This document shows, piece by piece, positions 31,989-55,946 of a DNA stretch of 64,000 nt. Under the pieces are notes generated by a model. That model was not told the origin of the DNA, did not search any database, and saw nothing but the letters and a program-made list of their open reading frames with translations. Position numbers and translations under genes: made by a program. This DNA is from an uncultured Verrucomicrobiota bacterium (GTDB taxonomy: Bacteria; Verrucomicrobiota; Verrucomicrobiia; Palsa-1439). The stretch lies in the NCBI GenBank assembly GCA_964566575.1, contig CAZMKD010000260.1, positions 521 to 64,520 of the forward strand, written 5' to 3'. Positions within the stretch are counted from its first letter, which is position 1. Each line of letters starts with the position of its first letter.

Positions 31989-33383
31989 ATGACAAGAGCG
32001 AAGATCCTAATCATTGACCATGATGCTTCCTGGACTTTGACAGTGTCCGAACTGCTAATCAAAGACACTTATGAGGTTTTCTCCGCAAACTCTCCCAAAG
32101 ATGCCATTCTCTTGCTAGGGGTTCATAACATCGATCTGATGATCGCCGACGTGAACATGCCCGGCCAAGATGGGATGACCCTGCTGGAGCAGCTCAGGCA
32201 GATGCACCCCCATACCGCAGTGATTGTCCACACTGAGAAGACGTCGATCTCACAGGCAGTTCAAGCCACGCGGCTGGGTGCTTATGACTACATCGAGAAG
32301 CTGAACGAACCGGAGGCACTCACTTCCTTGCGGGAAAAGGTGCGGCGCTCTGTGCAGCAACATGGAACACTCTTGTCCGCGTCGCCCGGTGATCCTCGCA
32401 CTCGAGGAATGCTCGCCGCGCCGACGCAGGGATTTTACGGCATCATCAGCCAGAATGACCGGATGCGGGACATCTTCGAGTTGATTCAAACCATCGCGGA
32501 CAGTTTTGCCAACATTCTCGTTCACGGAGAAACCGGTACCGGCAAGGAACTCGTGGCTCGTGCTGTTCATGAAGCCAGCGCCCGACACGGCAAGCCGTTC
32601 ATCACGTTGGATTGCTCGGCGTTGGCCCGGGAACTCCTCGAAAGCGAGTTGTTCGGTCACGAGAAGGGCGCATTTACCGGGGCGACGGACCGCCATATTG
32701 GACGGTTCGAGCGCGCCAACGGCGGCACGCTCTTTCTCGACGAGGTCGCCAATATCGACCGAGCGACCCAAGCGAAACTGCTGCGCGTGTTGCAGACACG
32801 AACCTTCGAGCGCGTCGGTGGACAAAAGTCTATCTCCGTGGATGTGCGAATCATCGCCGCGTCAAATCGTCCGCTGGAACAATTGGTCACTGATGGGACC
32901 TTTCGCGAAGACTTGTATCACCGGCTAAACGTCGTCCAAATCGACCTGCCGACGTTGCGAGAGCGGGCTGTGGATGTGCCGTTGCTGGCGACGGAGTTTT
33001 TGCGGCGGTTCGCCCAGCAGAACAGCAAGGACATGCGAAGCTTCACCGACGGCGCGATGAACATGCTCACCAATTATCACTGGCCTGGCAATGTGCGCGA
33101 ACTGGAAAACGTCGTGTTGCAGGCCGTCGTTCTAGCGAAATCCGCATTCATCGACACCTGCGATTTGCCGAAACGCATCATTCAATCGCCGACCACAGTC
33201 ACGGCGCCGGTAACGGCCGCGCTGGCCGATCAACTGGGCGAGCCGGAACGGCAAATCCTGGTCAATGCCCTGCGTCAGCACGCCGGCAACATCAAGCGTA
33301 CCGCCGAGATGCTCGATATCAGCCGCACGACGCTGTACGCCAAATTGAGGAAATACCAAGTCGATCCCGACGCCATTCGTTAG
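31989..33383 (+). CDS. Sigma-54-dependent Fis-family response regulator (NtrC/AtoC-like enhancer-binding protein).
   Basis: Receiver domain with LMIADVNMPGQDG. AAA+ domain with GETGTGKE Walker A and ESELFGHEKGAFTGA GAFTGA motif. C-terminal Fis-type HTH. The start is probably ATG 31989; the track uses TTG 31983. No histidine kinase is adjacent. Confidence 0.9.
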   Translation: MTRAKILIIDHDASWTLTVSELLIKDTYEVFSANSPKDAILLLGVHNIDLMIADVNMPGQDGMTLLEQLRQMHPHTAVIVHTEKTSISQAVQATRLGAYDYIEKLNEPEALTSLREKVRRSVQQHGTLLSASPGDPRTRGMLAAPTQGFYGIISQNDRMRDIFELIQTIADSFANILVHGETGTGKELVARAVHEASARHGKPFITLDCSALARELLESELFGHEKGAFTGATDRHIGRFERANGGTLFLDEVANIDRATQAKLLRVLQTRTFERVGGQKSISVDVRIIAASNRPLEQLVTDGTFREDLYHRLNVVQIDLPTLRERAVDVPLLATEFLRRFAQQNSKDMRSFTDGAMNMLTNYHWPGNVRELENVVLQAVVLAKSAFIDTCDLPKRIIQSPTTVTAPVTAALADQLGEPERQILVNALRQHAGNIKRTAEMLDISRTTLYAKLRKYQVDPDAIR

Positions 33384-34861
33384 CGGCGCGTGTAGATGAC
33401 CGCAGTTTCGTCGACGTAAATCTGTTTCCAGTCCGCCCGTAACGCCAACAGCGCGTTCAAGCCGTGTTTCGGCGGGAGGATTGTCCAGCCCACCCGGTAT
33501 TTCCCCAACACCGTGTCCCATCCCGACTTCACGTCGTCCACGGTGTTGAATTCCTCGACGAGTTCCCGGCCGTAAAAGTCGTTACGCCCGTCGACGAACA
33601 CCTTGCGTTCCGGCAACTCGAGCATCAAGTAGCCACCCCAGCTGTAGTCATTGAACATCTCGCCCGTCACGGCCGTTGGATTCCCCCGCAACCAGTTGAC
33701 CGCCACGACTGGAAAGCGGTTTGAGAGAATCTCCGTGTCGATCACAGGCGCACCGCCCACGATCTGCGGCTTGGCGCAAATCACCAGCAACGCCGCAACA
33801 GCGAGCCAGACCAATCCGCGCCCGTCCGCTGAACTGTCCAAGACCGTGATTCTCGCGGAAAGCCTTGTCCATACCGACGCGCCGGCAGTCTGCAGATATG
33901 CACTCCAATGTCTCGCAAGGATCGGCGTCGCGACCAATGCAAACACCGGCACATTTCGTGCCGAGTGCAATGCAAAGAAACCCCACACTCCCAACGACAG
34001 CAATTCGGTCGGACGCAACCTCGGCCGCACCACGAGCAAGAGACCGGCAACCACGAGCAACTCCAAAACGAAACCACGCATACCGGTGTTGTGGAAATTG
34101 GGCGAGCGAAACTCATTTGTCAGTCCAGCCAGTGCCGGCGTGCGCAAAAACTCCATAATCTGCGCGTGCAGCATCCATCCGTTGGGATTGATCAACGATG
34201 CCAGCAGACATGCAATCATCACGCCAGCCAGCGTGAGAACTCGTTCGCGCGACAGTGGCCACAGCGCGCCAAGCAAGTAGATACCGATCAGCACCACACC
34301 GGTAAGGAACGCTCCATGCAGGTTCGTCCACAGTACCATCAGCGGCGCGAGCGTGAAGAGCAGTCGATTGCCGGACATCTTACCGTTCTCAAACCGCCAG
34401 AGCTGCCACGCAAAGATTACCGTCAGCAGATGCGTCGTCAGATGTGGACGAGCCAGCCAATGCGTCGAACTCACCAATGCGGCCACCAACACCAATCCGG
34501 TCGACAGAAGCATCTCGCTGCCATCAGCGAGCAGTTGCCGGTGCAAGAGCCACAGCGTCGTCGCGATGAGCGCCGCCGACAACAGCACGATTCCGTTCCA
34601 GCCGGCCGCGCTCCCGGCCGCCGCGAAGATCACTTCGCTCAACCATTCCTTCGAGATCAGCGGCGCCCCGAAGCGCGTGTGGGAGAACTGATCGCGAACG
34701 ATAACAGTCTGATGCCCGATCATCCAGTCGCCGATGCGCCGGTGCAAGCACGGGTCCCCGTCCGCACTGATCATGACTTGCCGCCAATCGCTGAGGACCA
34801 GCCCGAAGAATATCAACAGCCACAGCGCCACGCTGATCGATGGGAGCCAGACGCGTTTCAC
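33380..34861 (-). CDS. STT3/PglB-like GT-C membrane protein, paralog 1 of 3 (oligosaccharyltransferase-like, divergent WWDYG).
   Basis: GTG 34861..34859 overlaps the upstream paralog stop (GTGA at 34858..34861). The 33-aa N-terminus is followed by ISADGDPCLHRR. C-terminal MFNDYSWGGY-x8-K-VF-VDGRNDFYG at 33621..33650. Confidence 0.75.
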   Translation of the reverse strand: MKRVWLPSISVALWLLIFFGLVLSDWRQVMISADGDPCLHRRIGDWMIGHQTVIVRDQFSHTRFGAPLISKEWLSEVIFAAAGSAAGWNGIVLLSAALIATTLWLLHRQLLADGSEMLLSTGLVLVAALVSSTHWLARPHLTTHLLTVIFAWQLWRFENGKMSGNRLLFTLAPLMVLWTNLHGAFLTGVVLIGIYLLGALWPLSRERVLTLAGVMIACLLASLINPNGWMLHAQIMEFLRTPALAGLTNEFRSPNFHNTGMRGFVLELLVVAGLLLVVRPRLRPTELLSLGVWGFFALHSARNVPVFALVATPILARHWSAYLQTAGASVWTRLSARITVLDSSADGRGLVWLAVAALLVICAKPQIVGGAPVIDTEILSNRFPVVAVNWLRGNPTAVTGEMFNDYSWGGYLMLELPERKVFVDGRNDFYGRELVEEFNTVDDVKSGWDTVLGKYRVGWTILPPKHGLNALLALRADWKQIYVDETAVIYTRR

Positions 34862-36237
34862 GGCGACCTCCGACAGAGAACGGTCGCCACTGCGTCGGTG
34901 TACGCCGCTTGCCACGACGGCGCGAGAATCTGGTTCAGCCGGTGGGCGCGCGGCAAGATGGTCCAGCCCACGTTGTACTTCGCGAGCACGGCTTCCCAGC
35001 CAGGGCGGATCTCGTCCACAATGTTAAACTCGTTGATCAATTTCTCGCCGTAGAAGTCCACGCGGCCATCGACAAAAACTTTGTGCTGCGGGAGTGCGAG
35101 AACCAAGTACCCGCCCCACGTCACGTCGTTGAATATCTCGCCACACACCGCCTCCGGATGTTGCCGCACGTACCGGACAGCGTCGACTGGGTATTTGTCC
35201 GCCGGTATTTCCGTTGGCAACCATTTCGGCCCGACCGCCAACGCGACCACGACAGTCACCGCCACCCACGCACCACCACCTTCCCGGCCGGCAAATGTCC
35301 GGTGCCAACGACTCGCGATCGGCTTGGCGAGAATTGGCACGGCAATCAGCGCAAACGCCGGCGCGTTGCGCGCGTTGCGCAGCGCAAGAAAGCCAAACAC
35401 CGAGATGAGCAACATTTCCGTTGCCGTCCACTTCGGGCGGACGATGGCAACTGTCAACGCCAGCATCACGAGCAGGAGGGCCAATCCGATGTGCTTGCGG
35501 AAGCTGGGCGCGGCGTACTCCTGCACGAAATTCACCAGCGCGTCGCTGCGCAAGTACCCGGTCACGTGCTCGTGTAAGTGCCAGCCATTTGGATTGAGCA
35601 ACGACGCCAGTAGACATGCCGCCAGCAAACCGGCGAGACGCCAGTTACCGATAGCGTGAATGGCAATCAGAACAAATGCCGTCACAAACGCACCGTGTAG
35701 ATTCGCCCACAACATCGTCAACGGAACCAGCGCCGCAAACAGCTTTCCGGTGGAGAGCTCATCACGAAGCATACCGGCAAATACGACCGTCAACAAATGC
35801 GTCATCAAATGCGGCCGCGCCAACCAATGCGTCGCGCACACGCTTGCGGCGAGGAGCGTCAGTCCAGTCGCGACCACAGCGTTCCCGCCTTCGCGCAGCA
35901 ACTGCCGGTGCAACCACCACAGTGTCGTCGCAATCAATGCCGCCGACAGCGCGACCGCACCAAACCAGCCGAGCGCGTTCCCGGCCAGCGCGAACGCGAT
36001 CTCACTCAACCACCACATCTCCACCAGTGGCGCCCCGAATCGTGTGTGCGAAAACTCATCAGCCCTCAGAACGGACCGGTGTTCCAGCATCCAGTTGCCT
36101 TGCCGCCAGTGCCAGCAGGGATCACCGTCGGCGCTGATCAATTTGATTCGCTGGCTACTGCAAGTCAGTGCAAGAAAAAACACCAGCCAGACCACCACGC
36201 TCAAAGACGGCCGGCCCCACCACCGTCGCGTGTTCAC
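34858..36237 (-). CDS. STT3/PglB-like GT-C membrane protein, paralog 2 of 3.
   Basis: GTG 36237..36235 overlaps the paralog 3 stop (GTGA). LISADGDPCWHWR. IFNDVTWGGY-x8-K-VF-VDGRVDFYG. Confidence 0.75.
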   Translation of the reverse strand: MNTRRWWGRPSLSVVVWLVFFLALTCSSQRIKLISADGDPCWHWRQGNWMLEHRSVLRADEFSHTRFGAPLVEMWWLSEIAFALAGNALGWFGAVALSAALIATTLWWLHRQLLREGGNAVVATGLTLLAASVCATHWLARPHLMTHLLTVVFAGMLRDELSTGKLFAALVPLTMLWANLHGAFVTAFVLIAIHAIGNWRLAGLLAACLLASLLNPNGWHLHEHVTGYLRSDALVNFVQEYAAPSFRKHIGLALLLVMLALTVAIVRPKWTATEMLLISVFGFLALRNARNAPAFALIAVPILAKPIASRWHRTFAGREGGGAWVAVTVVVALAVGPKWLPTEIPADKYPVDAVRYVRQHPEAVCGEIFNDVTWGGYLVLALPQHKVFVDGRVDFYGEKLINEFNIVDEIRPGWEAVLAKYNVGWTILPRAHRLNQILAPSWQAAYTDAVATVLCRRSP

Positions 36238-37655
36238 TCTTTCCTCCACCAAATCATCGCGACCTCATCTGAGTGTACACAACTCCATCCCTCCCACTCT
36301 GCCAGCGCCAGATTGAGCCGGTGGTTCGTGGGCATGAGCGTCCATTGCACTTGATACTTCTGCAGCGGCTCAACCCAGTTGGGACGTAGCGCCGTTAAAT
36401 CAGCGAATTCGCGGATGAAATCCTCTCCATAAAAATCCGTCCGCCCGTCGACGTACGTCTTGTGCTCCGGCAACGCCTTCATCAAATACCCACCCCAGAT
36501 GTACTGGTTGAACATATTCCCGGTAAACTCCTGCGGATGTTGCCGGATGAACTCAATCGCTCTTACCGGCCAGCGATCTGCCGGCATATCTGTCGGGTGC
36601 GGTGCGAAGATGATAAATGTCGTCGCTGCCGCTAAGACAACCGTCCAGCCCGTGCTCATGTCGTCAATGCGCCGCAACCGCACGGACAAAGATCGCCACC
36701 TTTCCGGCAACACCACCGACCATGACACGGCAAGAATCGGCGCGGTCACAATGACCAACAGCGGGATGTTGCGCCCAGCGTACAATGCAAAGTACGTCCA
36801 CGAAATCAACAGCAACCCATCTGCGGCCGACACGCGTGGGCGACACAGCGTCAGCGTCAGGAAGATCACCGCCAGCCATGCCAGAAACCCGAGCGAGCCA
36901 CCCGAGTGAAAATTCGCCGAACCGTACTCCGCCAGCCAACCGGTCAGGAAGTCCGACCGGAGGAATGCAAGATTGTGCAAGTGCAGCTTCAGGCCGCTCG
37001 GGTTCAACAATGACGCCACCGCGCACAACGCTGCGATGACGGTGAGCGTCTTCACCTCCGGCCACCGACGTTCGATCATAGCGCCGAGCCAGTACGCGCC
37101 GAGCACGAGAAAGCCGGCCAGAAACGCGCCATGCAGATTCACCCATAGCACGGTCAGCACCGGCAAAACCGCGTAGCGGCGCCGGCGCAGAGCTGTGTTC
37201 CACAGCAACATCAACAGGAAACTGAATACGTGGGGACGGGCCAGCCAGTACCCGCAGGCCGCCCACATCGCAAGCACAGCCACCGCTGTCGCGACGATAA
37301 AATCGCTCCCGGCCCGCAGCAGTTGCCCGTGCAGCAAAGCGAAGGTCGTCGCAATGACCAACGCCACCACCACCGCCAAAGCAAACAACCCGGCCACGTG
37401 CGCCGCCGACGCAAAGATGATTTCCGCGAGCCATTCCTTCGAGATGACCGGCTGGCCGAACTTCGTGTGGGAAAACACATCGGTGCGGACGATTTGCCGG
37501 TGCTGCAGCATCCACTCGCCGACGCGCCAGTGCATGCAAGTGTCGCCGTCGCTGGCGACCATCGCGGTGCGCCATGGTTGCGACAGTAGCATCACGACCA
37601 GCAACAGCCACAACCAGTGGCTCACCGACGGCAATAACCAGCGGGTCGCTCGCAT
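36234..37655 (-). CDS. STT3/PglB-like GT-C membrane protein, paralog 3 of 3.
   Basis: ATG 37655. MVASDGDTCMHWR. MFNQYIWGGY-x8-K-TY-VDGRTDFYG. 473 aa. Confidence 0.75.
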   Translation of the reverse strand: MRATRWLLPSVSHWLWLLLVVMLLSQPWRTAMVASDGDTCMHWRVGEWMLQHRQIVRTDVFSHTKFGQPVISKEWLAEIIFASAAHVAGLFALAVVVALVIATTFALLHGQLLRAGSDFIVATAVAVLAMWAACGYWLARPHVFSFLLMLLWNTALRRRRYAVLPVLTVLWVNLHGAFLAGFLVLGAYWLGAMIERRWPEVKTLTVIAALCAVASLLNPSGLKLHLHNLAFLRSDFLTGWLAEYGSANFHSGGSLGFLAWLAVIFLTLTLCRPRVSAADGLLLISWTYFALYAGRNIPLLVIVTAPILAVSWSVVLPERWRSLSVRLRRIDDMSTGWTVVLAAATTFIIFAPHPTDMPADRWPVRAIEFIRQHPQEFTGNMFNQYIWGGYLMKALPEHKTYVDGRTDFYGEDFIREFADLTALRPNWVEPLQKYQVQWTLMPTNHRLNLALAEWEGWSCVHSDEVAMIWWRKE

Positions 37656-37689
37656 TTGCGCGAGAGCTTAGGAACTCACCGCCGAATCT

Positions 37690-39279
37690 TCAACGTAGAA
37701 CTGCAACCGGGTACGGCTCCAGCCGGGGCGGCTGCGCGTCTGCCTCCAACAACCAAACGTGGCGGTCGCGAAAGTAGTCGAGCAACTTCTGGTTTTGCGC
37801 CTCATCCATCTCCCGCGCCCAGACCACGCACGCGCCGTCGATGTCCGCTTCGTTGTAAACCCATTCATCTTCCGGCGAGTGTGATGCGCCATAACGCACA
37901 ATCACGAGTTGTTTCTCACCCGATCCTCGCAATCGGGTCAGTAAATGTTGCCTGTCCACCGCATACTGACGCGGCACATCCTTTCGAAGCAGGATTACAG
38001 TGACCACCACGCTTGCCGCGTATCCCATCAAACCCCAACGCACGAGCGCCCGGCCTACGCGTCGCCGCCCGCAGCGCCACACCCAAACCCGCCGCAGTAC
38101 TGCCACCCCAAGTACCGCCAACGCACCGATTGCCGGCGCCGCATAATGCACGTTGAACCACGATTCCAGCAGCAGGCCCACGACAAATATCATCACGCCC
38201 CCACCCAGAAGTCGCGTCCATCGATCGCGCATCGCCCACCTGAGCGGCACGACCGCAAGCGTGATCAACGCCATCGGCAGCCCAAGCAAATGCACCGGGA
38301 AAAGTCCGTCAGCGAGAATGACGAGTTTTTTCCAGCAAGCGATCACAAAGCCGGCGAGTGTTTGCTGCGTTTGATAGTTGAACAACACCAGCGCGTGAAA
38401 AAACTCGCGAATCACCTCGTGCCGGTAACTCGGTTCTGAATGCAGCGGCATCCACACAAATGGTGGCGCAATTCCGTATTGCGCTACATACTCCACGTAC
38501 GGAAGCCGCAGTGCATTGCCGGTCACGCGCCAGTTGTAGTACCCAAGCCAGCAGGCACCGATGGTCAACATAACAACCATCGGCACCAGCGTCCGCCAAT
38601 GCCTTCTGCAATGACCCAGCCACCAGACAACCAACGCCGCCACGCTGAGAACAAGTCCCTCGCACGGACGACTCACCGCCAGCACGGCCATGCCGGCGCC
38701 CATCGCCCAGCCGTTGCTGCGGCGCATGCCGCCAAGTACCAACGCGCCGCCCAGCACGTTAATCACTCCGCCTGTGTACCACCGACTCCACACCAGTAAG
38801 ATTGGATGCAGAGCAAACAGCAACGCCCCGAGAACGGCCCACCTCGGGCGCGTCCACGCACGCAACATCCAACACACCGCCGCCGACACAAGACCGGTTG
38901 CCACCCAGACTCCGGCAATCGGATTGCCACACACAACTTGTCCCAGCGCCAAGACCAATCCTTGCGCCGGCGGGTACATCGATGCGTAGGTCGGCTGTTG
39001 CAGAATGTAAAAGCTCTCTAGTTGCACCCACAACGGATGCGGCGGATTCGTCAACCTTCCATGCGAGAAGGTGTCGCCGGCCAAGAGATAACTGTACGGA
39101 TCATGACCCGACGGCGGCGGCACACCGGCGATGGCTGCGACCACGACGCACGCTGCAAAAGATACGAGACCGATGCTGAGAACTGCGAGCCACGGCCGCC
39201 GCCCCAACTTGGCGAGCCCACACTCGGCGGTGCGAAACCATCGGTCAGCCAGTTGCGGCTGGAACCAAACGATCGCCAA
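37690..39279 (-). CDS. Polytopic membrane protein, GT-C-like (529 aa), paralog of 39612..41219.
   Basis: HDPYSYLLAGDTFSHGRLTNPPHPLW first-loop motif. C-terminal soluble domain QLVIVRYGASHSPEDEWVYNEADIDGA. The start is uncertain (TTG 39279). Confidence 0.7.
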   Translation of the reverse strand: MAIVWFQPQLADRWFRTAECGLAKLGRRPWLAVLSIGLVSFAACVVVAAIAGVPPPSGHDPYSYLLAGDTFSHGRLTNPPHPLWVQLESFYILQQPTYASMYPPAQGLVLALGQVVCGNPIAGVWVATGLVSAAVCWMLRAWTRPRWAVLGALLFALHPILLVWSRWYTGGVINVLGGALVLGGMRRSNGWAMGAGMAVLAVSRPCEGLVLSVAALVVWWLGHCRRHWRTLVPMVVMLTIGACWLGYYNWRVTGNALRLPYVEYVAQYGIAPPFVWMPLHSEPSYRHEVIREFFHALVLFNYQTQQTLAGFVIACWKKLVILADGLFPVHLLGLPMALITLAVVPLRWAMRDRWTRLLGGGVMIFVVGLLLESWFNVHYAAPAIGALAVLGVAVLRRVWVWRCGRRRVGRALVRWGLMGYAASVVVTVILLRKDVPRQYAVDRQHLLTRLRGSGEKQLVIVRYGASHSPEDEWVYNEADIDGACVVWAREMDEAQNQKLLDYFRDRHVWLLEADAQPPRLEPYPVAVLR

Positions 39280-39611
39280 CAGGATCGCTATTGCGAGTGC
39301 AGTTATCAGGCGCGCCCAGATTAGTATGCAAGCCCGGCAAGCTCAAGCTGACAGCTTCAGCATGGAACTACCGAACACGTTCTGGTATGGAGGCAAAGCA
39401 TGAGCGAAGCGAACCAAACCGAACCCCGACCGCGCACTCCGAATGGCGTCGGGTGGGGTGTTGGTGACGGGAGTTTTTTTGTGAAACAGAAAAAGAGTGA
39501 GTGAGTAGTTTTCATACTGGTTATGGATGACACGAACAGAATTCAGCGGTCCGACGGCCTGATTACGCTGGCGGTCGAACCCAACGACCTCCACGAGGCG
39601 CGGCGGGACAG

Positions 39612-41219
39612 ATGAACTGGTGGAGACAATTGGTGCGGCGGCCCCGGTTGAGCATTGCCTTGGTCGGATTGCTCGCTGGCGGGTTGTGCGCGACGGCGGG
39701 ATTGTGGATCCGGATGCCGGTCCCCGAGGTGCACGACGAGTTCAGTTATCTGCTGGCGGGCGACACGTATGCACACGGACGGCTGACCAACCCGACGCAT
39801 CCGTTGTGGCAACACTTCGAGAGTTTCCACATCATTCACCAGCCGACCTACATGTCCATGTATCCGCCCGGTCAGGGACTGTTTTTGGGGCTGGGACAAG
39901 TCTTGACGGGCCGCCCCATCGTGGGCGTCTGGTTGAGCACGGCGCTGGCAGTCGCCGCGGTTTGCTGGATGTTGCAGGGCTGGGTGCCGGCCCGGTGGGC
40001 ATTGTGCGGTGGGTTGCTGATGGCGGTACACCCGACAGTGTTTCGCTGGGGTCAGTCGTACTGGGGTGGCGCGGTGGCAATGTTGGGCGGGGCACTGGTG
40101 CTGGGAGCGTTGCGCCGGCTCGCCCGTCACTGGCGTGTATGTGATGCGCTGTGGTTGGGGGCCGGCATGGGAGTACTGGCGCTGAGCCGTCCGTATGAAG
40201 GCGCGGTCCTGAGCGCCCTTTGCGTGATGACTTTGTGGTTGTGGCACCGACACGACCGACGGCTGAGTGGGCTGGAGTTCTTGAGGCGGGTGCTCATGCC
40301 GGCTGCCGGCGTGGTGGCGGCTACAATGTGTTGGTTCGCCTGCGACAATTGGCGCGTGACCGGTAATCCTTTGCGGCTGCCGTATCAGGAAGAACGGTCG
40401 CAGTACGCTCCTGTGCGGAATTCGTTGCTTGGGCTGTCAGCAAAGCGGACGAATGTGTATCGCCATCCGGTCATGCAGGAGTTTTACGAAGGCTGGGAGA
40501 TGGAGCAGTACACTCTTTTTACCGCCAATCTGGCTGAGGTGATATCCGACAAAATCGCGACCTACTCCCGAGGATACTTTGGACTGAGTGTTGCCCCGCC
40601 GTTGACCGGGTTGGTGTTGGTGTTGCTGCTAGGGATGCGCGGGCTGGTCCGGCGGCGGTGGATGAAGATCGGGCTGGGCATCTGGTTGGCGTTTTCAGTG
40701 GCGCAACTGCCCGTGACATGGGCGCATTTCCATTACGCGGCGCTCCTCCATTACGCGGCGCCAGCGTACGGGTTCGCGGCGCTGTGGGTGGTGGAATCGA
40801 CTCGGCAACTCCGGCTGTGGCGCTGGCAGGGATAACGCGTCGGACAAACCACAACCAGGACTCTTGGCGTGGCCTGTGCGGTGGTGTTGTTGCTGTACTA
40901 CGGCACGTGGAGTTGGGAGAAGGCGTCGGCTGCGGCAGACGGGTGGGGAAATCAGCGCGCGCAGTTACTCGAACAGCTATCGCGCGCTGGCGGCCGGCAC
41001 TTGGTGATTGTGCGGTACGGCCAGAGACATTCGGTACATGATGAATGGGTTTACAATGCAGCAGATATTGACGCCGCCACTGTGGTCTGGGCGCGCGCAA
41101 TGGACGCGGTACAGGATCAGCAGTTGATTGGCTACTTCCATGACCGTCGGATCTGGTTGTTGGAACCGGACGAATCGACAGCGCATTTGATGCCCTACCC
41201 GGCGAGGGAGACCAAGTGA
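39612..41219 (+). pseudogene. GT-C-like membrane protein (divergently transcribed paralog of 37690..39279) interrupted by an in-frame TAA at 40833..40835.
   Basis: Track ORFs 39612..40835 and 40869..41219 share one frame. The junction ...LRLWRWQG*RVGQTTTRTLGVACAVVLLLYY aligns with ...VWRCGRRRVGRALVRWGLMGY in the paralog. The C-terminal part HLVIVRYGQRHSVHDEWVYNAADIDAA matches the paralog's C-terminal domain. Confidence 0.65.
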
Positions 41220-41327: not shown

Positions 41328-42842
41328 ATGGCCGTGAACGGACGCGTTTTCCAGACAATGTTCAATGCCTCCGTTGGCGCACTGCTCGGCCTTGGATTAC
41401 TTTCAGCGGCCATTTTGCACGGACGCTTGGTGCTGAATCTCGACCGCGACGGAGAGAACAGTTCGTCCGAGGGAGTGACGTTGTACGGGCTGCACTGCGC
41501 CCAGACAGGGCAAGCGGTGTATCGCGACTACCACACGCCGCCGCATGTGCTGAGCGGATATATGCCGCTGTTTTACTACGGGCCGGGCTATCTCAGTCGG
41601 TGGTTGCGGGCGGACCGACTAGGGACGTACATGGTCGGCCGGTATTACGTCTATGCGTTCTGGCTGGGGATCGGAGTAGGCGTCTACAAGCTTGCGCGAC
41701 ACGCCGGCAGCGCGAGGCTGTACGCAACCCTGGCAGCGGCGCTGTGGCTGGGTGGTCTAATCTCGCCGCAGTGGGCAAACTCATTCCGGCCGGACGCGAT
41801 GGCGCTGTTTTTTTCCCTGGCGGCAGTGTGGCTGTATTTGCAAGGATCAAGCTCCCAGCACTTGGCCGTCAGCACAGCGCTGCTGATGCTGGCCTTTCTT
41901 CACAAACAAACTGCCATCGCTCCGCTATTGGTGATCCTCGCCGAGGAGTGCCGGCTAAGGCGCTGGGGGCGGGCAGTTGCGGTCGCGACGGGCTGGGGCG
42001 CGGCGCTGGCTATTATTGTTACGGTGGCGCAGCGCCTGACCGGTGGGACGTTTGTGATGAACGTCTCCAGTTTTGTGCACCCATTTACTGTTTGGCGACA
42101 AGCTCTGTACTTGATGACTTGGACGCTGTCGACGAACGCCGCTGTGTTCCTTGCGAGCATTTGGGCTTGCGCGACCATCGCAACTCCTGCGCCTGCCTCA
42201 TTACTCAAGCGCTACTTCATCGTTGCGCTCGCATTGGCACTTCTGCGCTCGACAAACTACGGTGCTTCGCAGAACCATTACCTCGAACCCTACGCCATCG
42301 GTTGCGTCTTGACGGCAATCCTTCTGCAACGCTGGCAAGACACTCCCGCCGGGTTGCGGGGCAGGCTCTTGCGATTGGGGTGGTTGGGCGTGGCGATGGC
42401 CGCAAGCATTTACACGCTTTCGATTCGCACGGCGCAGATACCGGCGTTGATTGCCGAGTCGATTCATCATCGCACTGTTCGCGATGGAGAGGCGCGGGAC
42501 TGGGACACGTTACTTGCGCGCGTGGCTAAGCTTGGAGAACCGATCCTGACCGAAGACAATTACCTCGATCTGCGTCGCGGCCTGACACCGCTCATGCTCG
42601 ATGCCAGCTTGTTGGGGGAACTGCAGTTGCACGGCAGATTTGACGATGCCGACCTGCGTCGTAAAATTGCCGCTGGAGAGTTCGGGGCCATTATCACAAC
42701 GGAACCGTTCGAGGCCACGCTGCTGTGGCGCTATTTCCCGAGTCAATGGATTGAAATCATGCGGCACAGCTACCGGCTAACCGACCGCATCCCCTTGAAG
42801 TCACTCGATACCACTTATTATATCTACCAGCCCAAAGAATGA
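41328..42842 (+). CDS. Polytopic membrane protein (504 aa), possible GT-C glycosyltransferase of unclear family.
   Basis: At least 10 hydrophobic helices. A periplasmic-like C-terminal domain of about 130 aa. Confidence 0.65.
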   Translation: MAVNGRVFQTMFNASVGALLGLGLLSAAILHGRLVLNLDRDGENSSSEGVTLYGLHCAQTGQAVYRDYHTPPHVLSGYMPLFYYGPGYLSRWLRADRLGTYMVGRYYVYAFWLGIGVGVYKLARHAGSARLYATLAAALWLGGLISPQWANSFRPDAMALFFSLAAVWLYLQGSSSQHLAVSTALLMLAFLHKQTAIAPLLVILAEECRLRRWGRAVAVATGWGAALAIIVTVAQRLTGGTFVMNVSSFVHPFTVWRQALYLMTWTLSTNAAVFLASIWACATIATPAPASLLKRYFIVALALALLRSTNYGASQNHYLEPYAIGCVLTAILLQRWQDTPAGLRGRLLRLGWLGVAMAASIYTLSIRTAQIPALIAESIHHRTVRDGEARDWDTLLARVAKLGEPILTEDNYLDLRRGLTPLMLDASLLGELQLHGRFDDADLRRKIAAGEFGAIITTEPFEATLLWRYFPSQWIEIMRHSYRLTDRIPLKSLDTTYYIYQPKE

Positions 42843-42910
42843 GCTCCGATTGGGCGCTCTGAGGAGAATATATTTGTTCTGCGCGCCACGGTCTGGTTGA
42901 ATCACCGCGC

Positions 42911-45034
42911 ATGAAAACCCGGCAGGACATCGAGCTATTTCTTCTTGGGGCCCTGATCCTGTTCTTGGAAGTGGCGCTGATCCGCTGGATCGGCACTGAG
43001 ATTCGCATCTTCGCGTATCTCGGCAACCTCGTCTTGGTGGTCTGTTTCTTCGGCGTGGGTCTCGGCTGCTACCGGGCCGCGCGCCCGCTGGACGTCACGC
43101 GGTTCGGGGTGAATCTGTTGTTGTTATTGGCTCTCATCAGTAATCCCACGCGGATTCAAGCGTTGGATCTGAAAAACGTGACGCTGCTGTTGAGTGGGTT
43201 TGCGGATTCGCCCATCTGGAACGTGATGTGGGACGGCTCGGCATTGCGAGCAGCGGCGGGGCTGGGTCTGGTCGGGGCGCTGTTGTACCTCGTCGCATTT
43301 ACTTTTGTGCCGGTGGGACAGATGTTGGGACGCGCCTTTGAACAACACCCGCACATAGTCCGGGCGTATTCGTTCAACATCGTTGGCAGCCTGGCTGGCG
43401 TGTGGCTGTTCAACCTGTTGAGTTGGCGCTCGTCACCGCCGACCGTTTGGTTTGTGGTGGTCGCAGCGCTGGTCGTGCCACTGTTGATGGCGCGTGGCCG
43501 GCAGGGATGGATCGCCGTCGGACTGATCGCTGTTGCGCCAGCGTTAGTGTGGCTGGGGCATCCGCCCGGCCAGCAGACGGTTTGGTCGCCCTATCAAAAG
43601 CTCACCCTGAGTCCGTATTTCGAAGGAAGCGAAACCAACCGGGTGCAACGCGGTTACCTGGTGGAAGTCAACGGCACCCACTTTCAACAAATGATCGACT
43701 CTTCCGATGCGTTCTGCGCGCGTCACCCCGGCACGTTCAAGATGGAGGATGTTCAGCGCGGCCGGTTCAACACGCCTTTCCCGTTCAAGACGGCCGCCCG
43801 GCGCGTGCTGATCGTCGGAGCAGGCACGGGCAACAACGCGGCGGAAGCGTTGCGTCAGGGCGTCGACGAGGTCGATTGCGTTGAGATCGACCCGCAGATC
43901 TATGCGCTGGGCAAACGATATCACCCCGAGCATCCCTACGATTCGCCGCGCGTACACATGACGGTCAACGACGCCCGCGCCTATTTCAAGCACGCCACCG
44001 GCCACTACGACATCATCTGGTTCGCGTGGCTCGACGCGCACACGCAGGCCTCCTCGTACAACAACCTGCGGCTCGATCACTACGTCTACACCGAGGAAAG
44101 CATCCGAGAGGCGAAACGACTTCTCGCCGACGACGGTTTGTTGTTCATCAACTTCAACGTGATCCGGCCCTGGATTGGCGACCGGCTGTTCGTGCTGTTG
44201 CGGCGTGTGTTTGGCCACGACCCGCTGATGTATCGAAAAATCTTGCCGGCAGAACTTGGCAAAGCCAGCAGTCAGTACGTACTCATCTGCGCCAACCAAC
44301 CGCTCAACGTGGATGGACTGGCCGATCCCAGGTTGCGTGACGTTGTCGCAGGCAGCGTTGTTCAGATGCCCGGTACGACGCGGCCGACGACCGACGACTG
44401 GCCGTATTTATATCTCCAACAACCCAGAATCCCCAAACTTCATCTGGTGACCATGCTCATGATTCTGGGGACAGTCGCGGTGGCAGGTCGGCGCACGTTT
44501 GGGTTAAAAGGAGGACTCGACTGGCATTTCTTCGCGCTGGGCGCAGCGTTTCTGCTTCTGGAGGTGCAGGCGGTGAGCCGCGCCACGCTGTTATTCGGGA
44601 TGACATGGGTGGTGAACGCGATCGTGATCTCGGCGGTGCTGGTGATGATTCTGGCGGCCAACGCCGTTGCCGCCCGCTGGCTACGATTGCCGCATGGATT
44701 CATCGTCGGCGGGCTAGCCGTAACGGTCATGGCGTTGGCGGCGATGCCGCTTGCATGGTTTAACACACTAAGCGGCGCGACAAAGGTGGTCGTCGCGGGG
44801 GGATTTCTGACGGCGCCGGTGTTCTTTGCCGGACTGGTGTTTATCCGATCATTTACCGCCTGCAATGACAGAGCACGCGCGCTCGGCTCAAACCTGATTG
44901 GCGCACTCGTGGGCGGACTGCTCGAATCGCTGTCGTTCGTCACAGGCATCCGGGCATTGGTGATACTAATCGGATTGTTCTACGTTGTGGCGTTGTGGTT
45001 AAGGCCGAAGGAGCGAGTGTCGCAGTATGTCTGA
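42911..45034 (+). CDS. Membrane-embedded spermidine-synthase-like (PABS/class-I SAM methyltransferase fold) fusion protein, 707 aa.
   Basis: An N-terminal 7-8 TM block, then a soluble domain VLIVGAGTGNNAAEALRQGVDEVDCVEIDPQIYALGKRY...DIIWFAWLD...DGLLFINF, then a second C-terminal TM block. Confidence 0.8.
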   Translation: MKTRQDIELFLLGALILFLEVALIRWIGTEIRIFAYLGNLVLVVCFFGVGLGCYRAARPLDVTRFGVNLLLLLALISNPTRIQALDLKNVTLLLSGFADSPIWNVMWDGSALRAAAGLGLVGALLYLVAFTFVPVGQMLGRAFEQHPHIVRAYSFNIVGSLAGVWLFNLLSWRSSPPTVWFVVVAALVVPLLMARGRQGWIAVGLIAVAPALVWLGHPPGQQTVWSPYQKLTLSPYFEGSETNRVQRGYLVEVNGTHFQQMIDSSDAFCARHPGTFKMEDVQRGRFNTPFPFKTAARRVLIVGAGTGNNAAEALRQGVDEVDCVEIDPQIYALGKRYHPEHPYDSPRVHMTVNDARAYFKHATGHYDIIWFAWLDAHTQASSYNNLRLDHYVYTEESIREAKRLLADDGLLFINFNVIRPWIGDRLFVLLRRVFGHDPLMYRKILPAELGKASSQYVLICANQPLNVDGLADPRLRDVVAGSVVQMPGTTRPTTDDWPYLYLQQPRIPKLHLVTMLMILGTVAVAGRRTFGLKGGLDWHFFALGAAFLLLEVQAVSRATLLFGMTWVVNAIVISAVLVMILAANAVAARWLRLPHGFIVGGLAVTVMALAAMPLAWFNTLSGATKVVVAGGFLTAPVFFAGLVFIRSFTACNDRARALGSNLIGALVGGLLESLSFVTGIRALVILIGLFYVVALWLRPKERVSQYV

Positions 45035-45275
45035 TGACACATGAGTGTTGAAATGGGCGTGCGCTGGAAGATGGATTGTGTTGAGGCTCGGTTAAAATTC
45101 GCTGCGGAGCCGGAACGATGTCGCCCGAGTCAGAAGATGGGGCTTGGGATGGAAGAATTGAGCTTGCGGATGCTGTCAGCGGTAATAGAATTACGCTCGA
45201 CGAAGTTCAACGTCCCGCAATGGTCACGGGAGCAAGTCATATGGGAAATGTCGGTTGGCATGCAAGCCAAGGAAA

Positions 45276-46859
45276 ATGAACGCTTTCGGGTACCAACTAG
45301 ACCCACCCAAGTGTCCGAGGTTTTGGGTGACTGGATTTTTCGTCGCATTAGTGACTCTGACCTGTATCCTTTGCACCAACTTTGACCGCCCATGGACCGG
45401 TCATCACGACTTCAACGGCGCCGTGTGGTCGCAGTCGGCACACAACGCGTTGCGGGCCGGACTGTGGGTGACGCGAGGAGCCTCCACGGGCTTCTACTTC
45501 GGACCGTTACCGATACCACCCAACGGCTACTACATGCATCATCCGCCGGCACTGCCCTTGACGGTGACGGGAGCGTTTCTCTTGTTTGGTGAACACGAAT
45601 GGGTGGCGCGAGCGGTTCCGATTGTGTCTTCGGTTGCAAGCGCAGTGTTTCTCTGGTTGCTGCTGCGTAGCTGTGTCGGGATCCGTGCTGCCACGCTGGG
45701 CGTGGCGGTGTTTGCGCTCTTGCCGATGGAGTTGTATTTCGGACGGATGGTGAACCACGAAGCATGCGCTTTGCTATGGATGTTGGCAGCGTTCTGGGCG
45801 CTTCGCAGATGGCAGGAAACCGGGAGGATGTCCTGGAAGCTGACGGCGCTCGCGTTTTTTTTGTTGGGGATGGAGACGGCATTGCCGGTTTATCTGCTGG
45901 TCATGGTGGCGGCCGCCTTGCTCTGGATGAGTGGTGACCGTTCGGAATGCCAGCTCGCGTGGCTGTTGGTGGCGCTGGCAGTGTTGGCGGGGCTGCTGTT
46001 CCTCGCCCACGCCCGGCTTGTGCGGGCCGATGCTTGGGCGGATGGTTGGGTAGCGATCACGCGCCGCAGAAGCATGACGGGCCGGCTTCAGTTCACTTGG
46101 CAGCAATGGTTCCAATCGGAACGGAACATCCTCGCTGAGTATTTCTCACTGCCAGCATGGATGTTGGCGACCGGTGGAGCGGTGGTCATGACACGAAACA
46201 GGGTTCGCAAAGAGCAATGGCGCTGGCTTGTTGTGGCGGCGGCGAGTATCTTTTTTATGGACACTCTGTACGTCGTAGCCTTTCCGAATGCCTCCATCGT
46301 TCATGACTACGCCGCATTCTATTTCGTCGCTCCGTTGGCGATGATGGGCGGCGTCGCTTTGGACGCGTTACTCGGCAGTAATCTCGTCCGCACCAACAGA
46401 TGCGCCCGGGCCGCAGCAACTGGATTCGCCATTCTGGTGCTGGTATTGATGGGGCGGCACGCCTTCACCAAAGTGCGGGATCTGCACCGCATCCAATATT
46501 GTCTGGTTTGCGATCGATTTATCGAACCTCCGAATCTGATTCCGTCGCTCGGACAAGCCATGCGGGGTTTCTTCCCAGAGCAGACACTTGTGCTCTGCAA
46601 TATTCTGCCGGACAGACCGCGCGCTTTGCTACCGCCCCAACTGCAATACTATTCCGAACGAGAGTTGCTGAATCCCGGGACAACTTACGCGCAATGGCAG
46701 CAGCCGATTGCGCAACACGAGCCGTTTGTCGGCGGGGTGATTTGGGAGGGAGAGACCGGAGCGGCGGATTTGCTGGCCGCGTTGCCGGAAGGAAAGCGGT
46801 GCCGGGTCCAATTCGGTACGTTCCAGTTCTGTTTGTGGAAGCTTAAAGACAACGGATGA
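45276..46859 (+). CDS. GT-C-fold membrane glycosyltransferase-like protein (GT39/ArnT-like), about 527 aa.
   Basis: The first ATG at 45276 has an AAGGAAA Shine-Dalgarno; the track TTG 45255 is less likely. First-loop motif RPWTGHHDFNGAVWSQSAHNALRAG. Its stop overlaps the next start (ATGA at 46856). Confidence 0.7.
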   Translation: MNAFGYQLDPPKCPRFWVTGFFVALVTLTCILCTNFDRPWTGHHDFNGAVWSQSAHNALRAGLWVTRGASTGFYFGPLPIPPNGYYMHHPPALPLTVTGAFLLFGEHEWVARAVPIVSSVASAVFLWLLLRSCVGIRAATLGVAVFALLPMELYFGRMVNHEACALLWMLAAFWALRRWQETGRMSWKLTALAFFLLGMETALPVYLLVMVAAALLWMSGDRSECQLAWLLVALAVLAGLLFLAHARLVRADAWADGWVAITRRRSMTGRLQFTWQQWFQSERNILAEYFSLPAWMLATGGAVVMTRNRVRKEQWRWLVVAAASIFFMDTLYVVAFPNASIVHDYAAFYFVAPLAMMGGVALDALLGSNLVRTNRCARAAATGFAILVLVLMGRHAFTKVRDLHRIQYCLVCDRFIEPPNLIPSLGQAMRGFFPEQTLVLCNILPDRPRALLPPQLQYYSERELLNPGTTYAQWQQPIAQHEPFVGGVIWEGETGAADLLAALPEGKRCRVQFGTFQFCLWKLKDNG

Positions 46860-47866
46860 TTTCCGAAGCAAAACTCAAGTGGCTGCCCGGCCTGGCCACG
46901 AACCAGCAAATCCGGCTCTACACGCTCGAGAGCCTGCGCGAGCCTCGGCGGCTCCTCGCCAAAGATGGATGGTTGATTTTGAGCTTCGGTCCTGAGCGTT
47001 GGTGGATCGCTGATCGGTTGTTTGTGATGGCTACTGAAGTATTTGGGCACGAACCGGTAGCTTACTCACTGCGAGAAATCTCCCGCCATTGCGGCGGAGG
47101 CGAGAATTTTACGTTATTATGCAGCACTGAGCCACGGTTGCTTGAGACGGTCAAGGATCCCCAACTTCGTGAGTTGATTCAGTCTCATCGATCTACGTTG
47201 CCGGCCGTGACGCGACCCACAACCGATGATTGGCCCTACCTATACTTGGAGAAGGCCAAGATCCCGAAACTACATCCGGTGATCTCACTGACAATTCTTG
47301 GGCCCGTCGCCCTTGCCGGCAGAAAGATGTTTGAGACCAACCGGGGTCTTGACTGGCACTTCTTCGCCTTGGGCGCGGCGTTTCTGCTGCTGGAAGTGCA
47401 GGCGGTCAGCCGTGCCACGTTGTTATTCGGGATGACGTGGATAGTAAATGCGATCGTGATCTCGGCGGTGCTGGTGATGATTCTGGCGGCCAACGTCGTT
47501 GCCGCCCGCTGGCCACGGTTGCCACATGGATTCATCGTTTGCGGACTGGCCGTAACGGTTGTCGCATTGGCAGTGATGCCCCTTGCCTGGTTCAACACGT
47601 TGAACGGACCAACAAAGCTGATTGTCGCGGCGGCGTTTCTGACGGCGCCGGTGTTTTCTGCCGGGTTGGTGTTCATCCGATCCTTTGCCCGCTGCAATGA
47701 CCGGGCACGAGCGCTCAGATCAAACCTGATTGGGGCACTCGTGGGCGGGTTGCTTGAATCGCTGTCGTTTGTAACCGGTATCCGGGCACTAGTGATCTTG
47801 GTGGGAGCGTTCTACGTGTGGGCAGTGCGGTCCCGTCCGTCCCAACAACCACCACGAGGCGACTGA
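46856..47866 (+). CDS. Truncated paralog of the C-terminal half of 42911..45034: part of the soluble domain plus the C-terminal TM block (336 aa). It may be a fragment or pseudogene.
   Basis: About 85% amino-acid identity over the last ~210 residues (RPTTDDWPYLYL...LDWHFFALGAAFLLLEVQAVSRATLLFGMTW...). It lacks the N-terminal TM block and the GxGxG SAM-binding region. Confidence 0.6.
   Translation: MISEAKLKWLPGLATNQQIRLYTLESLREPRRLLAKDGWLILSFGPERWWIADRLFVMATEVFGHEPVAYSLREISRHCGGGENFTLLCSTEPRLLETVKDPQLRELIQSHRSTLPAVTRPTTDDWPYLYLEKAKIPKLHPVISLTILGPVALAGRKMFETNRGLDWHFFALGAAFLLLEVQAVSRATLLFGMTWIVNAIVISAVLVMILAANVVAARWPRLPHGFIVCGLAVTVVALAVMPLAWFNTLNGPTKLIVAAAFLTAPVFSAGLVFIRSFARCNDRARALRSNLIGALVGGLLESLSFVTGIRALVILVGAFYVWAVRSRPSQQPPRGD
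47214..47866 (+). repeat. Segmental duplication: copy B of a ~650-bp block. Copy A is at 44385..45034. About 90% nucleotide identity over 47341..47810 against 44521..44990.
   Basis: Identical 45-nt runs, for example gcgatcgtgatctcggcggtgctggtgatgattctggcggccaac in both copies. Confidence 0.8.
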
Positions 47867-47870
47867 TTGC

Positions 47871-49370
47871 TTGAGTGTGTCTCCGAATCAACGTGACCGG
47901 CTAGCGGCGCTGGTGCTGTTCGCGGTAGCCCTGGCGCTTTATGTGCCCGTGCGCAGCCGGTTGGCGTACCACTGGGACAGTGTGGAGTTTGCGCAGGCGA
48001 TCAAGGACTACAACTTGGCCGTGTCGCAACCACACCCACCGGGTTATTTCCTCTACGTGATGTTCGGACGACTGGTGAACGCCGTGGTCGGCGACCCACA
48101 TGCGAGCCTCGTCGCCATGAGCCTGTTGTGCGGCGGCGCACTGGTGGCAATCATGTACCGTCTTGGAACCGATCTGTTCGGGCGGCGCTGCGGCGCAGTG
48201 GCGGCGGTGTTGACGATGACGAGCCCGTTGATCTGGTTTCACAGCGCGGTGGCGCTGACGTATGTCGTGGACAGTTTTTTGGTGAGCCTGTTTGTGTGGT
48301 GGGCCTGGCTGGCGCTGCAGCGTGGCGGCACCTGGGCGGATATCGTTGGCTTGGGAATCCTGCTCGGCGTGATCGCCGGGGTCCGCCAGCAAACGGTGCC
48401 GGGTCTGTTGCCGTTGGCGGTATTTGTGTTTGCGAAGTTTCGGCTTCAGAAGGTGGCTATCGGTCTGAGCGCGATGCTGCTGGTGTGCGCGGCGTGGGCG
48501 CTGCCGATGATGATGATGACGGGCGGATGGGATGCGTACTGGGAGGCGTTTCAACGGCATGGGGTATTCAACGCGCTGCGCACGTTTGGCGGAACGGGCT
48601 GGGACGCGCTGCTGTGGAACGTCTTTTTTCTCGGTTTGTTTTGCAGCAATGGGCTGATGTTGGGCGTTGTGCCGCTGGCCGGGCTGATTTACCGGAAGCG
48701 GGATGCGGCAATGAACTTCGTATTGCTTTGGGTCATACCGATGATTTTGATCGCAGTCTGTCTGTCATTCATCGTGTTGCCGGGACACGTGATGTGTTTT
48801 TTACCGGGTTTGATTCTCGCGACGGCAGTCGTAGTGGCGCGATTTCCTTGGGCGGCGACGGCGATGTTGGTGGGCGTGAACGTGTTTGCGTTTCTCGCGT
48901 GGCCGGTGGCGTGGGATCGCGTTTTTTACGGCACGGGGCTCACTGCCCGCGCGCTATGCGAGCATGACCGGCAACTGTCCCGTATGGTGGAGCTGATCCG
49001 CCTCCAGTACAAGCCGGCTGATACCGCCATCGTCCATGCCGTCGCATGGCTTCCGCAGGGTATGCGCCACTTCATGTACTACCTGCCGGAGTTCGATCAT
49101 TACCAACTGGCCGAGGACCGCGCCATCGGCGCGCCGTCTAGCCAACCCATGGTCAGCGCCAAAGCGGGGAGAATCGTGTTCGTGCACAAGATGGACTTGG
49201 CCAACAAGCGGACGGTTCTGTTGTTCGTTCCGCCCGGCCAATCGCTCCAGATCTTCGAGCCATACCTTGACCTGACCGCTACGCGCGAAGTGCCCGGGTC
49301 AGGTGGACAGATTTACGAATTGGCGGCCGATCTCGCGGTCCATCGACAGAGCTGCAACGACCATGATTGA
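47871..49370 (+). CDS. DUF2723/TMEM260-like GT-C membrane protein (putative protein O-mannosyltransferase family), 499 aa.
   Basis: N-terminal YHWDSVEFAQAI...NLAVSQPHPPGYFLYVMFGRL, matching the WDsgEF...HPPGYPLY signature I recall for DUF2723. The start is TTG 47871 or GTG 47877. Confidence 0.7.
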   Translation: MSVSPNQRDRLAALVLFAVALALYVPVRSRLAYHWDSVEFAQAIKDYNLAVSQPHPPGYFLYVMFGRLVNAVVGDPHASLVAMSLLCGGALVAIMYRLGTDLFGRRCGAVAAVLTMTSPLIWFHSAVALTYVVDSFLVSLFVWWAWLALQRGGTWADIVGLGILLGVIAGVRQQTVPGLLPLAVFVFAKFRLQKVAIGLSAMLLVCAAWALPMMMMTGGWDAYWEAFQRHGVFNALRTFGGTGWDALLWNVFFLGLFCSNGLMLGVVPLAGLIYRKRDAAMNFVLLWVIPMILIAVCLSFIVLPGHVMCFLPGLILATAVVVARFPWAATAMLVGVNVFAFLAWPVAWDRVFYGTGLTARALCEHDRQLSRMVELIRLQYKPADTAIVHAVAWLPQGMRHFMYYLPEFDHYQLAEDRAIGAPSSQPMVSAKAGRIVFVHKMDLANKRTVLLFVPPGQSLQIFEPYLDLTATREVPGSGGQIYELAADLAVHRQSCNDHD

Positions 49371-55943: not shown

Positions 55944-55946
55944 GGC

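Follow-up and report, generated by a model that had tools for sequence, protein, structure and literature searches.

Glycosyltransferases of the C-type fold (GT-C) build extracytoplasmic lipopolysaccharide (LPS), arabinogalactan, teichoic acids and protein glycans. Series of paralogous GT-C enzymes that act stepwise and extracytoplasmically with polyprenyl-phosphate sugars are represented by the mycobacterial embCAB/aft clusters and by the ALG3/9/12/6/8/10 series of the endoplasmic reticulum lumen. For most bacterial GT-C members outside a few pathogens, we know of no product. Here, a 64-kb stretch of DNA from an uncultured Verrucomicrobiota bacterium was analyzed (contig CAZMKD010000260.1; in the following termed the window, to which all coordinates refer). 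It contains an island of ten polytopic membrane-protein open reading frames (ORFs), A to J, at 33380-49370 in two divergent, tightly packed series. Eight of them (A-F, H and J) are GT-C genes, seven of these intact, and they belong to at least three very divergent lineages, namely A/B/C, D/E and F+H+J. G and I are polytopic, but not GT-C. We consider it likely that the island encodes a periplasm-facing, polyprenyl-phosphate-sugar-dependent battery of GT-C enzymes, which builds or decorates an envelope glycoconjugate or glycoproteins.

The embCAB/aft clusters and the ALG series offer a functional analogy for stepwise action, and some of their genes lie side by side. The families differ, however, and here eight GT-C genes are found within 16 kb, with up to six tandem copies of one family in relatives. 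A three-component system for extracytoplasmic glycosylation consists of a polyprenyl-phosphate GT2 synthase, a flippase and a GT-C enzyme (PMC11127046). Genes for the GT2 and a small flippase beside the GT-C gene would mark such a system; neither was found in the window. GT-C enzymes are an already known kind of enzyme, yet literature and family-library searches returned no description of the A/B/C, D/E or F families. Judged by its sequences, the A/B/C family with invariant DGD and WGGY motifs appears to be undescribed in the literature searched. The same literature did not describe arrays in which as many as six old paralogs stand in tandem, the frequent pairing of the family with a membrane SpeE-like protein, or a 16-kb region to which at least three divergent lineages contribute eight GT-C genes.

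The ORF listing agreed with the preliminary description of this DNA, which had placed ten ORFs in divergent series at these coordinates. Within the minus-strand series A-D, neighbouring genes overlap or are separated by a 34-bp gap. By BLASTP, the proteins formed three paralog sets: A/B/C (39-48% identity), D/E (41%), and I with residues 392-702 of G (67%). Each of A-F, H and J has 8-11 transmembrane (TM) segments by hydropathy. The acidic first-loop motifs claimed before were seen in the same eight proteins, 10-25 residues past TM1. They are D36-G-D38 in A/B/C, D60 and D69 in the D family and E48 in the narrow F family, and motifs are also visible in H and J. The polytopic core superposed on solved GT-C enzymes, and A, B, C, D and E have the GT-C fold according to structure prediction. 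Pfam recognised only three of the ten island proteins (G, H and J); the remaining seven gave no Pfam or NCBIfam match, and for A/B/C, D/E and F no solved structure was matched by sequence. The preliminary count of at least ten GT-C genes in the island was thus reduced to eight, as G and I do not belong to this class.

A/B/C is a compact, unannotated STT3/DPY19-like GT-C family. A is 48% identical to B and 40% identical to C. Homologs of C amounted to at least 384 proteins in a collection of 5.8 billion sequences; all were labelled 'hypothetical' and lacked a Pfam domain, and the named matches came exclusively from Verrucomicrobiota. Over 45 sequences, including A, B and C, the invariant residues were D36, G37, D38, H42, R140-P-H142, W171, N173, H175, N218-P219, E243, R295-N296, W387-G-G-Y390 and D403-G-R-x-D-F-x-G410. 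A, B and C each retain all of them, the DGD loop and WGGY included. An AlphaFold2 model of C was built from 45 aligned homologs, A and B among them, and reached a predicted local distance difference test (pLDDT) value of 92.7 and a predicted TM-score (pTM) of 0.90. The model comprises a core of about twelve TM helices and, at the C-terminus, some 115 amino acids (aa) that form an alpha/beta domain; this globular, extracytoplasmic domain is of the AglB 'central core' type. Its structural matches were STT3B (17.3, 409 residues aligned), AglB (17.1), DPY19 (16.5), Pmt4 (16.4), ArnT (15.7), ALG12 (15.6), AftA (15.1) and PglB (14.0). In Foldseek, the top 14 hits were exclusively DPY19, STT3, AglB or PglB, while transporters remained below 0.15 in both probability and TM-score. 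In view of the structures closest to C and of the likeness of its C-terminal domain to that of AglB, we favour a relationship of A/B/C to the peptide-modifying STT3/DPY19 branch, as suggested by the model.

The resemblance to oligosaccharyltransferases (OSTs) that had been proposed for A/B/C was therefore borne out for the fold and for the C-terminal domain, which are like those of STT3, AglB and PglB. A canonical OST function was not supported. The STT3 Pfam model matched none of the 45 family members, even at E<=10, and WWDYG is absent from A, B and C. Instead, the invariant W-G-G-Y is located about 35 residues past the last TM helix, at a helix start, and is the sole invariant Trp-containing motif of the C-terminal domain. 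We infer that it occupies roughly the position of WWDYG in OSTs. Searches of PDB sequences with phmmer and hmmsearch retrieved no OST for the A/B/C family. The PDB sequence searches with C, D, F and the profiles A1, A3 and A4 gave nothing meaningful; matches to kinases and response regulators were dismissed as noise (E>0.09). Compared to STT3/AglB/PglB (GT66, PF02516), and especially to the short archaeal AglB-S, the A/B/C proteins have 464-511 aa and no detectable sequence homology. They carry WGGY without the Asp at the candidate WWDYG position and are not accompanied by pgl- or agl-type genes. They occur in Verrucomicrobiota, Chloroflexota and Acidobacteriota, and not in Campylobacterota or Archaea. 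DPY19 C-mannosyltransferases (GT98) share 10% identity with A/B/C, but are eukaryotic and have about 660 aa. As the longest ORF of A runs 58 nt into B, translation of A probably begins at a point downstream of 34915.

Conservation of the locus was surveyed with one genome per GTDB species. At least 490 loci with relatives of C were found, 75 of which were kept, and all window proteins were compared with these by tblastn. The locus is conserved, and many metagenome-assembled genomes (MAGs) of Verrucomicrobiia share the arrangement; a lack of conservation, or a majority of members outside the glycosyltransferases, would have refuted the preliminary description. The recurrent order is J on the opposite strand, often F on the opposite strand, often G directly upstream, and the C-type gene, which is followed by one to five tandem A-type genes and then by a convergent NtrC-like regulator and FabI. 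At some loci the C-type gene stands alone. In most relatives a homolog of J is found close to the array, and in about 30 loci of Verrucomicrobiia the final A-type gene has a counterpart of L as its neighbour. Two relatives stand closest, with 75-79% identity to C, and share with the window a wider neighbourhood of PdxJ, LptF/G, FabI, NtrC-like, GDE, M20 and TPR genes. Their membrane set differs and consists of GT87, PMT_2/TMEM260-like and unannotated proteins of about 490 aa; they have two A/C-family copies only, and G is present only in L076/L077. Relatives show the same local enrichment of GT-C genes at the corresponding locus. An origin of the island by horizontal transfer was weighed and discarded, since the GC content of 0.58-0.62 is like that of the flanks, no tRNA or integrase was found and the same neighbourhood occurs in relatives.

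A neighbour-joining tree of 128 A/B/C-family members was calculated. The C-type clade contains one member per genome, and this gene invariably opens the array. Within the A-type clade, at least four orthologous subclades track array position across genomes. A of the window falls into the subclade next to the NtrC-like gene (last position), and B into a mid-array subclade. Since the subclades track array position, the A-type paralogs are old and differentially retained rather than recently duplicated. The lineage-specific expansion proposed before has to be corrected in this respect, as most of it is old. Outside Verrucomicrobiota, the family is mostly single-copy and was found in Anaerolineae and other Chloroflexota, in Acidobacteriota and in one Bacillota MAG (about 30% identity). 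Neighbours in these loci included a WbaP-like initiating phosphoglycosyl transferase (Bac_transf; 10 of 32), GT87-like genes (13), YfhO (8) and Wzy_C/TPR (5). The polysaccharide-type neighbours in Anaerolineae point towards a glycan acceptor. In addition, at least two further unannotated polytopic families, of about 525 and 546 aa and with GT-C-like first-loop motifs, were observed within 6 kb of the A/B/C-family gene in the Anaerolineae and Acidobacteriota loci L042-L075. In L014, L015, L027, L039 and L041, mostly long-read 'MFD' MAGs, A-, C- or G-type genes were recovered in adjacent tblastn pieces. These broken genes may be frameshift errors or real pseudogenes, and either would affect the copy counts.

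Table 1. Features of the island and of genes referred to in the text.
Feature	Coordinates	Strand	Size	Description
A	33380-34915	-	511 aa	A-type member, A/B/C family
B	34858-36252	-	464 aa	A-type member, A/B/C family
C	36234-37655	-	473 aa	C-type member, A/B/C family
D	37690-39279	-	529 aa	first gene of minus-strand operon
Intergenic region	39280-39611		332 bp	between divergent series
E	39612-40835 (ORF end after stop, 41219)	+		D paralog with in-frame TAA
F	41328-42842	+	504 aa	polytopic, PMT_2-like by profile
G	42911-45034	+	707 aa	membrane-embedded, spermidine-synthase-like
H	45255-46859	+	534 aa	PMT_2 family (ArnT/PMT-like)
I	46856-47866	+	336 aa	5'-truncated G duplicate
J	47871-49370	+	499 aa	PMT_2/TMEM260-like (DUF2723)
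K	29261-30874	+	537 aa	polytopic, outside island
L	31983-33383	+		NtrC-type sigma-54 response regulator, convergent with A
N	1-1434	-	N-terminal 478 aa	polytopic, gene cut by window edge

D and E have an ALG12/ArnT-like GT-C fold and belong to a widespread, unannotated family. More than 2873 matches were obtained for D, including Isosphaeraceae and Blastocatellia. D60, D69, R75 and other residues are invariant in this family, and the small, conserved C-terminal domain is beta-rich (…VIVRYG…EWVYNEADID…VWAREMD…). From ALG12/ALG9 (GT22) and ArnT (GT83), D and E differ by an identity of only 10-16%, the lack of a Pfam match and this distinct C-terminal domain. E had been called a pseudogene and I a truncated duplicate, and both calls proved correct by tblastn and translation and by BLASTP. 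In tblastn, residues 24-524 of D aligned with the E region in one frame (39627-41201, 42% identity). The in-frame TAA at 40833-40835 lies inside an otherwise conserved stretch (…LRLWRWQG*RVGQ…), and the conserved C-terminal motifs are intact past it. E is thus a full-length D paralog, and either a very recent pseudogene, a split gene or the product of a base-call or sequencing error. Just upstream of the stop, at residues ~375-390, E shows a short internal duplication, 'HYAALLHYAAP', where D and the family consensus have 'HYAAP'. A second in-frame TAA, at 28748-28750, splits a gene directly upstream of K (28058-29254, plus strand), whose product, about 400 aa long, is alkaline-phosphatase/Phosphodiest-like ('…FDSDCHR*GVAS…'). 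Two in-frame TAAs in 64 kb raised the question of a TAA reassignment. This was rejected, because TAA ends four ordinary genes; stop usage in the window was 26 TGA, 11 TAG and 6 TAA. Nonsense mutations or MAG consensus errors are the more likely origin of the two codons.

The assignments of H as PMT_2/GT39-like and of J as TMEM260-like in the preliminary description were confirmed by Pfam. Against PMT_2 (PF13231, gathering threshold 26.1 bits), H scored 54.3 bits (E 2.3e-14) and J 27.3 bits (E 4.7e-6). H also had a weak Agl23-like match in NCBIfam, and J remained just below the 24.2-bit cutoff of the TMEM260-like model (PF11028; 22.5 bits, 1.1e-4). F had no direct Pfam match and only 16 close homologs, in which E48 is invariant and D41 near-invariant. 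A profile of the F family collected 6272 proteins among 1.84 billion cluster representatives. In a broadened alignment of 69 members, 15 matched PMT_2 (best 6e-9) and 4 matched PMT, and single members matched GT87, GtrII, DUF2079 and DUF2142. With hhalign, H was linked to the F-family profile with 95.5% probability (E 1.6e-8, 234 columns) and J with 92%. F is therefore PMT_2-like by transitive, profile-based homology, because members of its family match PMT_2 and both H and J are linked to it. The narrow F profile showed no relationship to the A/B/C and D profiles in hhalign. Relative to the described PMT_2 and TMEM260-like proteins, which H and J join by passing or nearly passing the thresholds and F by profile, no TPR or MIR accessory domains were present.

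Two further GT-C-like genes had been proposed outside the island, and for these the case is weaker. K gave no Pfam or NCBIfam match. It is probably a GT-C protein, as hhalign aligned it with the F-family profile over 140 columns that cover the PPL...K/Q motif region (77.8%, E 1.9e-5). K is syntenic in the relatives L002 and L005. N reached 19.4 bits against PMT_2 (1.3e-3), under the cutoff, and 25% in hhalign with the F family. With its visible loop motif EYDELEYH, N is possibly a GT-C protein.

G was rightly recognised before as a membrane-embedded spermidine-synthase-like protein. It matched Pfam Spermine_synth with 2.6e-10 (40.6 bits, cutoff 22.9) and SpeE in the PDB with 2.9e-8. About six N-terminal TM segments are followed by a Rossmann/SpeE-like domain (~290-415) and a C-terminal 5-TM bundle. 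The location of this domain after the N-terminal TM bundle is that of PRK03612-type proteins in NCBIfam, but the scores against the NCBIfam equivalog models (22-50 bits, cutoffs 249-537) did not reach equivalog level. SpeE is characterised by the acidic residue in GGG(D/E)G and by a catalytic D-x-x-D-P motif. These acidic positions bind the amine of decarboxylated S-adenosylmethionine and deprotonate the acceptor amine. In an alignment with SpeE of T. thermophilus (1uir), GGGEG stands opposite GAGTG and DLTDP opposite AWLDA, so that the second Asp alone is kept. G thus shares the Rossmann domain of SpeE and of membrane-anchored PRK03612 proteins, and differs in the acidic motifs and in the extra C-terminal 5-TM bundle. 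G has the SpeE domain fold, but is not a SpeE ortholog. Because the acids of GGGEG and DLTDP are replaced and the scores are far under the equivalog cutoffs, G is unlikely to be an ordinary spermidine synthase. G was observed next to the C-type gene in L004, L005, L007, L009, L012, L014, L015, L032, L037, L066, L076 and L077, usually upstream on the same strand; in L076/L077 the two genes are divergent.

I corresponds to G residues 392-702. It has retained the 5-TM bundle, the linker and the end of the SpeE-like domain, but not the nucleotide-binding half of that domain. A conserved segment in I is 'TRPTTDDWPYLYL', and in its TM part I hardly differs from G. Over 311 codons, the ratio of nonsynonymous to synonymous substitutions (dN/dS) between I and G was 0.25, with dS of about 1.1. 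I therefore behaves as a gene under purifying selection, and would be a retained gene rather than debris. Its start overlaps the stop of H (ATGA), by which I appears translationally coupled to H.

The reading of the island as a periplasm-facing GT-C battery is supported by the PMT_2 matches of H and J and the profile-based assignment of F, by the invariant active-site-like residues, by the old subclades and the conserved locus, by the polysaccharide-type neighbours in Anaerolineae and by the dN/dS of I. According to the fold class, each enzyme would be embedded in the inner membrane and expose its active site to the periplasm. The donor would be a sugar linked to polyprenyl phosphate or diphosphate, and the sugar would be passed on to an acceptor in the periplasm. 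Acidic first-loop residues, namely DGD in A/B/C, H-D-E/D..D in D/E and E48 in F, may serve as catalytic base or metal ligands. Since the old orthologous subgroups are kept in array order across genomes, the A-type paralogs most likely carry out distinct steps, i.e. different linkages, donors or acceptors, and might act in sequence. Synthesis and flipping of the donor would be encoded outside the locus.

Several results weigh against this reading. E is interrupted by a stop codon, and F, K and N were assigned from sequence profiles. Scans for promoters, terminators and regulators established no link to the array. The annotated ORFs in the 64 kb of the window yielded no GT2 polyprenyl-phosphate sugar synthase, flippase or initiating transferase, and a GT2 or GtrA-like gene was found neither in the window nor in the annotated loci of close relatives. 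The locus is therefore not a complete pathway, one common product for its enzymes is an assumption, and the self-contained 'dedicated system' suggested by the preliminary description could not be upheld. Moreover, most relatives lack D/E and H at the corresponding locus, and these genes are largely specific to the version of the locus in this genome. The island is for this reason in part an accretion rather than a co-evolved unit.

Taken further, the last point leads to an island that arose by accretion and decay at an insertion-tolerant locus, with largely redundant or degenerating duplicates that have no coordinated function. The in-frame stop of E, the truncation of I, the variation of A-type copy number between one and five among relatives and the GT87 genes that the closest relatives carry instead of D/E and H would all fit. 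We nevertheless regard this as unlikely, for A, B and C have kept all family-invariant residues, their paralogs form orthologous subclades conserved across genomes, the island ORFs except E are intact and tightly packed, and I combines a low dN/dS with ATGA coupling to the H stop. Even less can be said for a class outside the glycosyltransferases, such as transporters or polytopic proteins of some other kind. Such a view could draw on the seven island proteins without Pfam or NCBIfam match, but it is scarcely credible given the low Foldseek probabilities and TM-scores of transporters, and a transporter identity was ruled out for A-E, H and J. In this respect, the glycosyltransferase fold assigned before was upheld.

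A further alternative concerns the nature of the acceptor. A/B/C might be an offshoot of STT3/AglB/PglB-DPY19 that modifies periplasmic or surface proteins at a non-canonical site, each paralog having its own acceptor motif or donor. The best structural matches of C (STT3B, AglB, DPY19 and Pmt4) are all peptide-modifying enzymes, as are the top 14 of Foldseek; WGGY takes roughly the place inferred for WWDYG; and J is TMEM260-like and H PMT_2-like, two families that include protein O-mannosyltransferases. Conversely, A/B/C lack the Asp by which WWD reads the +2 Ser/Thr, the 45 family members lack any STT3 Pfam signal and the Anaerolineae neighbours are of polysaccharide type. We therefore hold this offshoot to be possible, though clearly the less probable alternative to the battery. 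A canonical N-linked OST, with A/B/C as orthologs of PglB/AglB that transfer a preassembled oligosaccharide to N-X-S/T sequons, would explain the overall fold, the C-terminal domain and the acidic D-x-D-type first-loop motif. It is very improbable, as there is no sequence match to STT3 models or solved OSTs, WWDYG is replaced by the invariant WGGY, the proteins are short (470-510 aa versus ~590-970 aa in known OSTs) and the surroundings hold no flippase or cytoplasmic glycosyltransferase genes of the pgl or agl type. A far-reaching variant, which we put forward as speculation, takes A/B/C for an unrecognised bacterial STT3/AglB-DPY19 lineage of Verrucomicrobiota, Anaerolineae and Acidobacteriota, in which WGGY replaces WWDYG and proteins are glycosylated independently of sequons. 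Up to six tandem paralogs per genome would each be specialised for an acceptor or donor, and G would modify the lipid-linked donor or the product, e.g. by aminopropyl or methyl transfer.

Whichever acceptor is used by the GT-C battery, the A/B/C family, with its hundreds of members from three phyla, offers proteins of about 470 aa that are undetected by Pfam and NCBIfam, and clear invariant residues as targets for mutagenesis. Its old tandem paralogs are a natural series for studying how acceptor and donor specificity diverges in GT-C enzymes, and the recurrent pairing with a membrane SpeE-like protein adds to the interest of the locus. If protein glycosylation is true, the bacterial range of OST-related enzymes would be wider and small new enzymes for glycoengineering would become available. 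If modification of polysaccharide or LPS is true, the locus would still define new families of GT-C enzymes in the Verrucomicrobia that abound in soil and freshwater.

The intergenic region between the divergent series presumably carries promoters. A search for sigma-54 sites, prompted by the adjacent NtrC-like gene L, found 79 sites in the window versus 87 expected by chance, none of them convincing in the intergenic region, and the sigma-70 promoter scan was at chance. Terminator-like sites numbered 27 versus 18.4 expected, and none of them marked the end of an operon. Neither the Rfam nor the tRNA search gave a hit in the window, and no Rfam family was found in the intergenic region.

Further genes of the window may be related to the envelope. 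At 6707-11665 on the minus strand, a 1652-aa protein with subtilase and immunoglobulin-like domains is encoded (ASH, HYDIN/VesB-like, DUF1573, TMEM131-like), which is conceivable as a substrate of glycosylation. At 54246-57436, again on the minus strand, a carbamoyltransferase of the NodU/CmcH type adjoins an AlgX/SGNH-like protein, with genes for phosphatidylserine synthase and decarboxylase nearby. This region thus holds envelope and polysaccharide-modification genes 5-8 kb downstream of the island.

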